Positions 6,980 to 56,547 are shown, numbered from the whole stretch's first letter. The stretch: 63,508 bases of DNA, filler included, from Basidiobolus ranarum (GCA_040143965.1; 9 parts of 9 records of this genome joined end to end with filler, not necessarily neighbours in it); one strand, 5' to 3'. Numbers and translations: made by a program. The notes: generated from the letters alone by a model not told the origin.

Positions 6980-7079
6980 NNNNNNNNNNNNNNNNNNNNN
7001 NNNNNNNNNNNNNNNNNNNNNNNTTAATTAATTAANNNNNNNNNNNNNNNNNNNNNNNNNNNNNNNNNNNNNNNNNNNN
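6980..7079. other. Artificial contig linker
   Basis: N44-TTAATTAATTAA-N44, stop codons in all six frames. Confidence 0.98.
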
Positions 7080-14052: not shown

Positions 14053-14152
14053 NNNNNNNNNNNNNNNNNNNNNNNNNNNNNNNNNNNNNNNNNNNNTTAA
14101 TTAATTAANNNNNNNNNNNNNNNNNNNNNNNNNNNNNNNNNNNNNNNNNNNN
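14053..14152. other. Artificial contig linker
   Basis: N44-TTAATTAATTAA-N44. Confidence 0.98.
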
Positions 14153-21123: not shown

Positions 21124-21223
21124 NNNNNNNNNNNNNNNNNNNNNNNNNNNNNNNNNNNNNNNNNNNNTTAATTAATTAANNNNNNNNNNNNNNNNNNNNN
21201 NNNNNNNNNNNNNNNNNNNNNNN
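21124..21223. other. Artificial contig linker
   Basis: N44-TTAATTAATTAA-N44. Confidence 0.98.
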
Positions 21224-28191: not shown

Positions 28192-28291
28192 NNNNNNNNN
28201 NNNNNNNNNNNNNNNNNNNNNNNNNNNNNNNNNNNTTAATTAATTAANNNNNNNNNNNNNNNNNNNNNNNNNNNNNNNNNNNNNNNNNNNN
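28192..28291. other. Artificial contig linker
   Basis: N44-TTAATTAATTAA-N44. Confidence 0.98.
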
Positions 28292-35257: not shown

Positions 35258-35357
35258 NNNNNNNNNNNNNNNNNNNNNNNNNNNNNNNNNNNNNNNNNNN
35301 NTTAATTAATTAANNNNNNNNNNNNNNNNNNNNNNNNNNNNNNNNNNNNNNNNNNNN
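35258..35357. other. Artificial contig linker
   Basis: N44-TTAATTAATTAA-N44. Confidence 0.98.
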
Positions 35358-42322: not shown

Positions 42323-42422
42323 NNNNNNNNNNNNNNNNNNNNNNNNNNNNNNNNNNNNNNNNNNNNTTAATTAATTAANNNNNNNNNNNNNNNNNNNNNN
42401 NNNNNNNNNNNNNNNNNNNNNN
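42323..42422. other. Artificial contig linker
   Basis: N44-TTAATTAATTAA-N44. Confidence 0.98.
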
Positions 42423-43529
42423 TGCGTCCAGTGTTTTACCTTGTTGCAAAGCTATCACCTTCGCATCGAGTAGTTTACTGTTCACTTGTCTCTTAACCAG
42501 GGCATCAATATCTACAGCTGGTTTTCCTTGGTCATCTTTGAGAGCTTTGACTTTTGCATCTAGTGTTCTGCCTTCTTGCAGAGCTATTACCTTCGCATCG
42601 AGTAGTTTACTGTTCACTACCTGTCGCTTGACTAGTGCGTCGACATCTATAGCCGGCTTTCCTTGGTCGTCTTTGAGAGCTTTGACTTTTGCGTCTAGTG
42701 TTCTGCCTTCCTGCAAAGCTAGTACCTTGGCATCAAGCAATTTACTATTCACCTGTCGCTTGACCAGTGCATCAATATCGACAGTTGGTTTTCCTTGGTC
42801 ATCTTTGAGGGCTTTGACCTTTGCGTCTAGTGTTCTGCCTTCCTGCAAAGCTAGTACTTTTGCATCTAGTAGCTTACTGTTGACCTGTCGCTTGACCAGT
42901 GCATCGATATCTACAGCTGGCTTTCCTTGGTTATCTTTGAGAGCTTTGACTTTTGCGTCCAGTGTTCTACCTTCCTGTAAGGCTATCACCTTTGCATCAA
43001 GTAATTTACTATTCACCTGCCGCTTGACCAGTGCATCAATATCGACAGCTGGTTTTCCTTGCTCATCTTTCAAAGCCTTGACTTTGGCATCCAAGGTTTT
43101 CCCTCCTTGTAAGGCATTTACATCGGTATCCAATAAACTGGTGTTGAGCTGTCTTTTTGTAACATGGTGTTCACTCTTTGGTAAATTCTGAATCTCAGTT
43201 TTTACCGAACTTCTTTCTTTCAGTTTCCTAGAGAAGTGAAGTTTTCGAGAAGGTTGGATTCTATTACGTTTTCTTAAGCTCATTTTACCCACAGATCTTC
43301 CGGTGGCTGATGCGAACTTACTTCTCTTGGATAAATTGAATTTCTTGGTATCGGTTAGCAAGTGATTTCTAGATATTGAATGTGTTTGTAACCAACGGCG
43401 CTGATTGTTCATGAAATTCGAGTGACCAAGGGACTTCATTTTCTCCAACAACTTGACATTCACTGGGCCAGCCAGGCATTGAGATGTTGCCAACATAAGG
43501 CATACAATGGCACAAGTAGTAGATCTCAT
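42423..43529 (-). CDS. Secreted Kex2-processed repeat protein (KEP) precursor; 3' truncated
   Basis: Signal peptide MRSTTCAIVCLMLATSQCLA; basic pro-region; at least 6 KR-delimited 44-aa units (132 bp) from 43151 to the contig end; TATAAAA about 85 bp upstream. Confidence 0.9.
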
Positions 43530-44018: not shown

Positions 44019-44828
44019 ATGAAATTTCATTTCTCAGTTTTGAACCTGCTGATTGCTGGTCTCACCGTGGTTAATAGAGTCCAGTGTCAACAAGACATCG
44101 ACTTTGAGCAACTTCTAACTATGACTCGTGGACGACATATCGAGGTTATACCTTCTGAAGATGGCTCTGGTAACTCAGATATCATCATCATAGTCAAAGA
44201 TCCAGACAGTCCTCGGAGTGATCACCAAGATGTTAACGACCGTGCTTCGCAGCGAAATCGCCATGGTACTGACCAATCTACAAGTCAACATCCGGAACAA
44301 AACACCCCAAATAAAAGTGTCAACGATAAAGAAATGACTACACCAACTGCTGATACAAGTAGCCATGGGCAACTTGATACGGGAAATCAAGCACAAACTG
44401 AAGTTCAGGCTTCTCCCTCCTCACAAAACACCAAACCTGCTATCTCTGCTGAAGTGACCAAGACAAATATTGGTCCTGAGTCAAGCAGACAAACTACCGA
44501 GTCAAGACTTAATCCTACTGAAACATCTCCTCCGGAAACTCCGGGGACTACACCTCAAATACCAACTATTGTTCCAATACCTGTGACAAAACCAACTGCT
44601 ACCAATGACCCACTATCTATTCCTACTAGCGCCTCACAAATCAAATCGGCGTCCACCTCCTCAAGTCTACCTTGGTCCTTTTCCCGCGTATCTACAGGTA
44701 CTTCTGCCAAACCAACTAATGTTCGCCCTTCACTGATTCCCCCAGCGATTTCTGAAGCACTTTCTTATCAACTAAGTTATTTACATATCCTGTGTGTCAC
44801 CCTTCTAGCTGTACAGATTTTTCAGTAA
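44019..44828 (+). CDS. Secreted, probably GPI-anchored Ser/Thr/Pro-rich surface protein
   Basis: Signal peptide, S/T/P/Q-rich body, hydrophobic C-terminal tail; intronless 269-aa ORF. Confidence 0.75.
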   Translation: MKFHFSVLNLLIAGLTVVNRVQCQQDIDFEQLLTMTRGRHIEVIPSEDGSGNSDIIIIVKDPDSPRSDHQDVNDRASQRNRHGTDQSTSQHPEQNTPNKSVNDKEMTTPTADTSSHGQLDTGNQAQTEVQASPSSQNTKPAISAEVTKTNIGPESSRQTTESRLNPTETSPPETPGTTPQIPTIVPIPVTKPTATNDPLSIPTSASQIKSASTSSSLPWSFSRVSTGTSAKPTNVRPSLIPPAISEALSYQLSYLHILCVTLLAVQIFQ

Positions 44829-45313: not shown

Positions 45314-46819
45314 ATGGGTGATGCCGGTTTTTTCAAAGTATTTCAATACTATGGTTAAGAATGTTTACCTGAATATTAAGTTACTAAACTATACAAATAT
45401 TCTCTTATTTTAGGGAACAAGCTCTGAACAAGACAGTCGTTTTAGTAATAAAGAGAAGAAACTCTTAAAGTCTATGAGTTTTCCACCCGAATTTAACAAA
45501 AAGGTAAGCAACCCTTGATGGTTCAAACGCGAAATTCTTCAGTACTCATGGCTTTATTCCAAACGACTTTTATGGAGGGAAACCCCTTCCCCCCTTATTA
45601 TATATATATACTTGAAAATATCTCCTTTATCGTGTTAAGGTTTCAAAGTCGCTTCGTAGTCCATATGAATCCCATTTTGAACTTACTTGATGTATCAAGC
45701 TGAACCTATTCAATGGCTAGAGTACTAGGAATTTCCTAACACTTTTCTTGGTTATTTTCTTTTGAATATCGTCAGAATAGTTTGGTAAACTTTTCCCTTT
45801 GACTTCCTCTTTCTTCAGGTCGATATTAAAAAGGTGAACTTGGCAGTTATGAAACCTTGGATCACTACCAAAGTTACGGAAATACTGGGAATGGAAGATG
45901 AAGTTGTTATAGATTTCGTATTTAGTTTATTGGAACAAGAAGTAAGTAATATTGATATTAAAACTACTTTATGTCAACCTAAAGTGGATTTTCTATTCCT
46001 TTTAGAATCTAGATCCAAAAAATATGCAAATCAATTTGACAGGATTTTTAGAAGCTAAAACTCAAACGTTTGTTCTGGAATTATGGAAACTTTTATTAAG
46101 TGCACAAGATAGTATTGGTGGTATACCTGGTGAATTCTTGGAACAAAAAAAGGAAGAGCTACGTAGAAAAAAGGTATGTACATTCTATATATTAGAAGCC
46201 TTTCTTACATATAGTAACGTAATCAAATTTAGGTGGAAGAAGAAAAGATTATGGAACAAATTCGAGAGAGAAAAGAAAAAGAATTACGGGAACGAAATAA
46301 CTTAGATGGTATTAGAGAACGTGAGAAACGGGAACGAAGGGTATTGTTCGAGATGTACATATTATCCACATAATTCAATTCTAATTGATTCCATTGTAAT
46401 GCTAGGTTTTTCGGGAAGACAGAGGTCACAGAGACAATAGAGATCGGGCAAGACGCACTAGTCCCAAGGATGGTGAAGCCCCACACCGGTCTAGACGTAG
46501 TCGCAGTGACTCTCGCGAGAGAAGACGCGAGAGAAATAGAAGCCCTCAAAAGCACCGTCGTGACAGAAGCTCAAGCCGGGAGCGCCGACGTGAGAGAAGA
46601 CCTAATAGCCGTCGTAGTCGCAGCAGATCTCATAGCCCAAACGACAAACGCCAACAGAGTGATAAATCCTCACGTAGACATAAGCAATCAAGGCCACGAA
46701 GCCCAACCCGTGTTGAAAACCCTGTCACGTTAGCAAATGATCCAGATGTTAAAGTATCCGAAGTTGACGCTCAACCTGGGAAAACCATACCAAAATCTAG
46801 GTGGGACAAAGAAAACTAG
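45314..46819 (+). CDS. SRRM1: PWI-domain SR-related splicing factor (SRRM1/SRm160-like)
   Basis: MGDAGFFKGTSSEQDSRFSNKEKKLLK…KVNLAVMKPWI…MQINLTGFL…ELWKLLLSAQ, then an RS-rich tail; 5 introns. Confidence 0.9.
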
Positions 46820-48218: not shown

Positions 48219-49320
<1,102 letters not shown>

Positions 49321-49385: not shown

Positions 49386-49485
49386 NNNNNNNNNNNNNNN
49401 NNNNNNNNNNNNNNNNNNNNNNNNNNNNNTTAATTAATTAANNNNNNNNNNNNNNNNNNNNNNNNNNNNNNNNNNNNNNNNNNNN
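49386..49485. other. Artificial contig linker
   Basis: N44-TTAATTAATTAA-N44. Confidence 0.98.
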
Positions 49486-56447: not shown

Positions 56448-56547
56448 NNNNNNNNNNNNNNNNNNNNNNNNNNNNNNNNNNNNNNNNNNNNTTAATTAAT
56501 TAANNNNNNNNNNNNNNNNNNNNNNNNNNNNNNNNNNNNNNNNNNNN
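56448..56547. other. Artificial contig linker
   Basis: N44-TTAATTAATTAA-N44. Confidence 0.98.

Follow-up and report, generated by a model that had tools for sequence, protein, structure and literature searches.

The window analysed here is a stretch of 63,508 bases in which nine unrelated contigs are joined in order of length, from 6979 down to 6961 bases, and the gene that concerns us occupies the left end of contig seven (42423-49385), which alone constitutes its true genomic context. The gene encodes a putative KEX2-processed repeat protein (KEP) of Basidiobolus ranarum whose product is present in the databases solely as a hypothetical protein (K7432_012981, KAK9761826.1; a cluster of one). 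Because spliced eukaryotic genes lie on the same 6963-base contig and the database protein matches its reading frame, the contig is nuclear DNA of an early-diverging fungus (Zoopagomycota), the origin that a preliminary description of this sequence had proposed.

A tandem-repeat precursor at a contig end

The open reading frame (ORF) runs on the minus strand from an ATG at 43529 to 42423 and is free of stops over its 1107 nt (369 codons), until it terminates inside the repeat at the run of N that marks the contig end. The first Met within the stop-to-stop frame opens the sequence MRSTT... and was taken as the start. Read in the direction of translation, the precursor consists of the following parts:

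43470..43529, minus strand: start codon and signal-peptide-like N-terminus (residues 1-20, with C-L-A before G21)
43152..43469, minus strand: basic pro-region (residues 21-126, four dibasic sites)
43020..43151, minus strand: unit 1, 44 aa with its terminal KR; at 79% identity to unit 2, the copy that has diverged most
42888..43019, minus strand: unit 2, 44 aa with its terminal KR
42756..42887, minus strand: unit 3, 44 aa with its terminal KR
42624..42755, minus strand: unit 4, 44 aa with its terminal KR
42489..42623, minus strand: unit 5, 45 aa including KR, with one additional Val codon
42423..42488, minus strand: unit 6, of which the contig end leaves only the first 22 codons

Translation reproduces exactly the frame and the unit coordinates given in the preliminary description (43151, 43019, 42887, 42755, 42623 for the unit of 45 aa, and 42488), and the last unit had rightly been called cut by the contig end, as the frame reaches the N joint at 42423. 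The signal peptide proposed there also fits, judged by a rule of thumb and not by a formal predictor: Arg2 is followed by a hydrophobic core (19-residue Kyte-Doolittle mean of 1.65 from residue 5) and by the small residues that precede G21. Beyond residue 21 the highest 19-residue mean in the known part of the protein is 0.66, which is too low for a membrane segment.

The pro-region is, as had been claimed, very basic and rich in dibasic sites. Residues 22-126 hold 27 Lys or Arg against 5 Asp or Glu (isoelectric point 12.0), the four sites are RR44-45, KR68-69, KR87-88 and KR125-126, and a further KR closes each complete unit. No Pfam family matches the pro-region. A short string within it, V-N-V-K-L-L-E (residues 23-29; 43443-43463, minus strand), resembles the start of a unit. 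The idea that the pro-region consists of decayed units was set aside, as a profile of the units matches residues 23-29 only, at a non-significant E value of 0.21 that amounts to a mere hint.

Tandem Repeats Finder describes the repeat as 5.0 copies of period 132 with 84% matches (score 914). The repeat region of 243 aa contains no Cys and no Phe, Trp or Tyr, in agreement with the absence of these residues noted at the outset. Units 1 to 5 each end in A-L-V-K-R followed by Q, and the junction before unit 1 reads V-T-K-R, again followed by Q. Within each 44-aa unit the motif [LIV]-D-A-x-V-x occurs three times at spacings of 13, 13 and 18, and KR falls within the third copy. Read by eye, the first two copies have 7 of 13 residues in common.

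Selection, annotation and relatives of the units

Identity among the units is 79-98% at the protein level and approximately 84% in the DNA, and the differences are distributed very unevenly over the codon. Among units 2-5 the variable columns at codon positions 1, 2 and 3 number 8, 0 and 25, and when units 2-6 are pooled the proportions of synonymous and nonsynonymous differences are 0.51 (pS) and 0.032 (pN), equivalent to a dN/dS of 0.063. An antisense ORF of 217 aa (42538-43191, plus strand) is likewise open across the repeats, and third-position counts alone cannot separate the strands here. Because this antisense frame shares the wobble positions of the sense frame, we compared all six frames for units 2-5 and obtained a dN/dS of 0.053 for the sense frame, 0.165 for the wobble-sharing antisense frame and at least 0.99 for the other four. 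The sense-frame value is the lowest of the six, and it is therefore the sense frame that is selected. The units are under strong purifying selection in this frame, which bears out the suggestion, made from third-codon variation, that selection acts on the peptide, and drift has brought their synonymous sites near saturation, which means that the copies are old. The residues of KR remain unchanged although its Arg codon varies (CGG, CGA three times and AGA, with AAA AGA at the first junction).

These values also bear on whether the frame has any function. The frame has no stop in the contig, the assembly breaks inside the repeat, and the antisense frame is open too, all of which would fit an error of assembly, a pseudogene in decay or a minisatellite frame that is open by chance. 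However, such an origin is very improbable given the gap in dN/dS between the sense frame and the other five, a proper ATG with a signal-peptide-like start, and units that have diverged to 84% nucleotide identity without any stop or frameshift. The gene is real and encodes a secreted protein that is apparently built for cutting into many copies of one peptide.

The public model of K7432_012981 matches our frame for 313 residues and then excises an intron from unit 5, which shifts the frame and leads to a stop seven codons on. Since the constraint holds through units 5 and 6 as well, this intron is probably an artefact of a gene predictor closing a gene that leaves the contig. Its position, and those of the joints at which the contigs of the window meet, are as follows:

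42536-42590, minus strand: annotated 55-nt GT-AG intron inside unit 5, public model K7432_012981
42323..42422, no strand: artificial joint bordering the precursor, N44 + TTAATTAATTAA + N44; non-biological
6980-7079, 14053-14152, 21124-21223, 28192-28291, 35258-35357, 42323-42422, 49386-49485 and 56448-56547: the artificial joints of the window, each N44 + TTAATTAATTAA + N44

Searches for relatives returned little besides the protein itself. Nothing else came up in word-indexed searches among sequences of near, shorter or greater length, and phmmer against 1.84 billion representatives gave four proteins at E <= 0.001, namely the protein itself and three metagenome singletons (P0002-P0004) in which no convincing Pfam family was found. 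P0002 (1017 aa) and P0003 (1475 aa) contain dozens of 14-15-aa repeats with a hydrophobic-D-A-hydrophobic-V-K motif like the sub-motif of the unit, and P0004 is a Pro/Ser/Leu-rich repeat protein. As none of them has a convincing family, we treated all three as cases of similar periodic composition and not as relatives. P0002 and P0003 have no KR at the matching place, and the likeness of their motif to the sub-motif may reflect convergence or distant kinship.

Against Pfam, the whole protein scores 29.4 bits for Sugar-bind (PF04198; cut-off 27) and 26.2 bits for DUF4099 (PF13351; cut-off 22), with each score summed over three stretches that fall on the same small part of the profile. A single unit matches no family at all, and two units together reach only 15.7 and 17.8 bits, respectively, both under the gathering cut-offs. 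Membership in Sugar-bind, DUF4099 or LBP_BPI_CETP was accordingly rejected as an artefact of summing over repeats. A sequence search of the PDB gave only mitofusin HR2 (E = 0.88), and the repeat region had no usable match in the ESM Atlas. No sign of a bacterial origin emerged either: a scan of prokaryote genomes produced 179 pattern matches and one tblastn match, an 817-aa ATPase-like ORF in a Pirellulaceae metagenome-assembled genome, which has one short string in common with the precursor and was judged a chance match.

Short peptide strings had no occurrence in the searchable literature, and shorter strings were absent from the supplements of PMC7329392, which says little, as Table S2 there lists accessions and types and not sequences. 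The window holds no other copy of the precursor, and its other dibasic-rich frames, considered as further precursors, were dismissed as basic nuclear-type or Arg/Ser-rich proteins. As far as sequence comparison reaches, then, the peptide is an orphan with no detectable relative in the databases searched, other Basidiobolus genomes lying outside that search.

Predicted processing into peptides

Cleavage in silico at KR and RR along the 369-aa known sequence yields 10 fragments, of which five are complete and near-identical (42-43 aa) and a sixth of the same kind is cut; together the repeats account for 57% of the known length. As published, the KEP rule of Le Marquer 2019 (PMC6339444) calls for at least four fragments at KR/RR, at least three of them alike, and a motif share of at least 15%, and that of Umemura 2020 (PMC7329392) for at least three tandem repeats of 8-100 aa between KR, KK, RK or RR. 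The 10 fragments, with five and a cut sixth alike, lie within the former, as the five repeats of 42-43 aa do within the latter, and the precursor also has the N-terminal endoplasmic reticulum (ER) signal peptide of a KEP, by rule of thumb, and lacks a membrane segment after it over the known sequence, which ends before the C-terminus. The architecture of a Kex2-processed repeat precursor that had been ascribed to the gene thus agrees with both published definitions.

The junctions themselves resemble good kexin substrates. Kex2 is described in PMC3777899 as selecting Arg at P1, a basic residue at P2 and an aliphatic or basic residue at P4, with bulky residues disfavoured at P1', and all six junctions fit this pattern (P2 Lys, P1 Arg, P4 Leu in five and Val in one, P1' Gln). 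The STE13 signature (X-Ala/X-Pro) follows KR at none of the six, and Q-V or Q-L is found there instead. For KEP peptides of Coprinopsis cinerea, pyroglutamate has been measured by peptidomics at a Gln that directly follows a dibasic site (PMC9769878).

Based on this architecture and on the established knowledge of the fungal secretory pathway, we propose the following route. The precursor would enter the ER, and a Kex2-like kexin of the late Golgi would cleave it behind every Lys-Arg, after which a Kex1-like carboxypeptidase would remove both basic residues. Once exposed, the N-terminal Gln would cyclise to pyroglutamate. One transcript would in this way give rise to a minimum of five or six copies of a peptide of 42-43 aa and approximately 4.4-4.6 kDa, plus a few basic pro-peptides. 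The preliminary description spoke of at least six Gln-starting peptides of about 42 aa; five complete peptides of 42-43 aa stand, and the sixth is cut at 22 aa. We consider it likely that the precursor is processed into peptides and, with somewhat less assurance, judge that the gene probably encodes a KEP-type pre-pro-polyprotein.

The free peptide is predicted to be helical. With a five-row alignment of the units, AlphaFold2 (AF2) models the 42-aa product at a predicted local distance difference test (pLDDT) score of 71.8, with one helix over residues 2-31 and a short one over residues 38-41, separated by a loop at the conserved Q-G-K-P, and the Chou-Fasman method assigns 24 of the 37 six-residue windows of unit 2 to helix, three to strand and 10 to neither. 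AF2 tends to give helices for short peptides. We have moderate confidence in the shape that these predictions suggest, in which a helix of approximately 30 residues (2-31) would be followed by a kink at Q-G-K-P and a short hydrophobic tail, V-D-I-D-A-L-V.

The description of the peptide as amphipathic was not borne out. Mean hydrophobic moments of 11-residue windows, calculated for angles of 100, 170 and 180 degrees, do not rise above those of 2000 shuffles (z of -0.7, 0.46 and 0.44), and no Fourier harmonic of the unit is convincing; periods of 3.67 and 2.0 are not significant, and the best period, 2.59, has an uncorrected shuffle fraction of 0.016 on one scale and 0.077 on the other. The peptide is zwitterionic, with 5-7 Lys or Arg against 6-7 Asp or Glu, a net charge of approximately zero (range -2 to +1) and a grand average of hydropathy (GRAVY) of -0.06 to -0.25.

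Several points weigh against the processed-peptide reading. Cleavage is read from the architecture of the precursor, and the protein has no sequence similarity to any characterised protein in the searches made. KR does not stand in a separate linker; it is embedded in the third motif copy of the unit, and the entire unit is conserved, hence the invariance of KR adds no weight. As the contig stops short of the 3' end of the gene, a C-terminal domain or anchor may follow. When AF2 is given the whole protein, the model is again helical, with helices of 33-36 residues that run across each KR and break at K-D-D-Q-G-K-P-A-V.

The last observation also speaks for an alternative in which the product is a secreted alpha-helical repeat protein, intact or trimmed only at its N-terminus, whose 44-aa units form long helices parted by Q-G-K-P loops. 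Buried in a helix, KR would be a poor kexin site, and the protein would have a surface, matrix or lipid-associating function. The placement of KR inside a sub-motif fits such a protein, as does the occurrence of a similar motif in the repeats of P0002 and P0003, where no KR is present and the motif can serve structurally. Its composition (L, K, D, A, V and Q, with neither Cys nor aromatics) also recalls exchangeable amphipathic-helix proteins. However, the whole-protein model is of low confidence (pLDDT 46.3; predicted template modelling score 0.15), P0002-P0004 are singletons whose likeness may be one of periodic composition only, the architecture falls within both KEP screens, and the pro-region contributes four more dibasic sites. 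Moreover, Lys-Arg with an aliphatic P4 in a protein passing through the Golgi is a canonical kexin substrate (PMC3777899). On balance we regard an intact repeat protein as unlikely.

Two further alternatives accept that peptides are released and differ in what the peptides do. If these were diffusible signals read by a receptor, whether hormone- or pheromone-like or acting on neighbours in gut or soil, the multiple copies would raise the dose, and near-identical copies with a dN/dS of approximately 0.05 would fit a sequence-specific partner. Yet 42-43 aa is outside the 9-24 aa class of known alpha-type pheromones, the STE13 signature is missing from every junction, no MF_alpha match was obtained from Pfam, and the 6963-base contig offers no receptor or mating-locus context, all of which makes a signalling role improbable. 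The other alternative, put forward in the preliminary description, attributes to the peptides a beta-rich structure and a role as amyloid surface coat, adhesive or membrane-damaging agent. The three strands joined by Gly turns that were described can indeed be read as short alternating hydrophobic and polar runs, such as V-D-I-D-A-L-V, and at 180 degrees the 10-residue tail reaches a moment of 0.59; given the bias of AF2 towards helix, a switch from helix to beta structure at interfaces is conceivable. Peptides of Rep1, close to this one in length, assemble into amyloid in the wall (PMC3133707). AF2 and Chou-Fasman nevertheless favour helix over residues 2-31, and no beta-type periodicity rises above shuffles. 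Cytolytic peptides such as candidalysin are hydrophobic and cationic, unlike the present peptide with its net charge near zero and negative GRAVY. The strands, and the amyloid or membrane activity derived from them, find no computational support, and we hold a beta-rich product to be quite unlikely.

Possible role and the Basidiobolus repertoire

If the peptides are released, their production in bulk, their considerable length by KEP standards and the missing STE13 signature favour a role as material. We tentatively suggest, by analogy with Rep1, that the peptide may be extracellular or wall-associated material that acts through its amount and self-association and not as a receptor ligand. Against a repellent-like role it must be said that one third of the residues are charged, that GRAVY is negative and that no significant amphipathic periodicity is present.

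The resemblance to Rep1 of Ustilago maydis is one of organization. Rep1 is reported to combine a signal sequence with KEX2-cut repeats that give rise to peptides of 34-53 aa, which are deposited in bulk (PMC3133707), and it is given in PMC6339444 as lacking the STE13 signature. The precursor described here also has a signal sequence and KR-bounded repeats, its peptides of 42-43 aa belong to the same size class, and it too is without the signature. The two differ in phylum, and the present peptide is predicted to be helical and is more charged. Rep1-type repellents form amphipathic amyloid fibrils in the wall and are needed for aerial hyphae; for the present peptide the computations lend no support to such fibrils. 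The exhaustive phmmer search revealed no sequence relationship with Rep1, which was not itself aligned directly.

Other systems offer partial parallels. With KEPs in general the precursor shares the signal peptide, the pro-region and at least three near-identical KR-bounded units in a single block covering 57% of the known length, whereas the sequence of its peptide is unmatched in databases and the length of that peptide falls in the less common 25-50 aa class. The C. cinerea KEP peptides likewise have Gln straight after a dibasic site and are processed by KEX2 and KEX1, but they are approximately 8-20 aa long and unrelated in sequence (PMC9769878). The alpha-factor precursor of Saccharomyces, MFalpha1, follows the same pre-pro-polyprotein logic of KR cleavage and subsequent carboxypeptidase trimming, but the present precursor has no X-Ala/X-Pro spacers and its peptide is three times longer. 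MF_alpha and MF_alpha_N were not among the eight Pfam families listed at E <= 10, so that neither the domains, the STE13 dipeptides nor the 9-24 aa length of an alpha-factor-type precursor is found. Ece1 of Candida albicans is also secreted and cut at KR into peptides, one of which is a helical effector, but it is not repeated, candidalysin being one of eight peptides (PMC7329392), whereas the present copies are 79-98% identical, zwitterionic and polar.

A more specific proposal, which we consider speculative and rather improbable, is that the peptides form a surface-active or adhesive coat. Pyroglutamyl helices of 42 aa, produced in bulk and built on the triplicated [LIV]DAxVx motif, would then represent an independent, non-homologous invention of the repellent or hydrophobin function in an early-diverging lineage. 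Basidiobolus bears aerial conidiophores and forms adhesive capilliconidia. Hydrophobins are reported mostly from Dikarya, with candidates in one of six Zoopagomycota proteomes (bioRxiv 10.1101/2022.08.19.504535), and a hydrophobin review (PMC13514795) contained nothing concerning early-diverging fungi.

The neighbouring genes all lie on the plus strand. A divergent ORF of 269 aa (44019-44828), 489 bases upstream of the precursor ATG, begins with what resembles a signal peptide, continues as a long stretch rich in Ser, Thr and Pro and ends in a hydrophobic C-terminus with the look of a glycosylphosphatidylinositol anchor; it matches no Pfam family. The surface-protein look of this neighbour is mildly in keeping with a surface role of the peptide. 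Farther along are exons of a PWI domain followed by an Arg/Ser-rich stretch (45789-46819) and three exons of a PP1-type (Metallophos) phosphatase (48508-49320).

KEPs have been catalogued in 250 (PMC6339444) and 1461 (PMC7329392) fungal proteomes, with repeat motifs recorded from 3 to 352 aa, the 25-50 aa class included. According to the larger survey, Zoopagomycota is the phylum most densely populated with KEPs, and Basidiobolus meristosporus CBS 931.73 is the richest of the 1461 strains with 43 KEPs, many of which are listed in the supplement as type 0 (stand-alone) with consecutive accession numbers (PMC7329392). Because the assemblies of that survey date from October 2019 and Basidiobolus is unnamed in the main text of the other (PMC6339444), B. 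ranarum is probably in neither. The claim of a probably undescribed system therefore stands in part: the peptide has no known relative, but KEPs as a kind are well described and B. meristosporus is full of them. The class of gene is known and expected in the genus, and the peptide itself is the new part.

Basidiobolus lives in association with the gut of reptiles and amphibians and occasionally causes disease in humans. Provided that the peptides are made, they would add a well-defined, strongly conserved product of 42 aa to its largely uncharacterised KEP repertoire, one long enough to fold and an easy target for mass spectrometry. A structural or surface-active function, if true, would be weightier, as the coating of aerial and adhesive structures in early-diverging fungi is barely understood.

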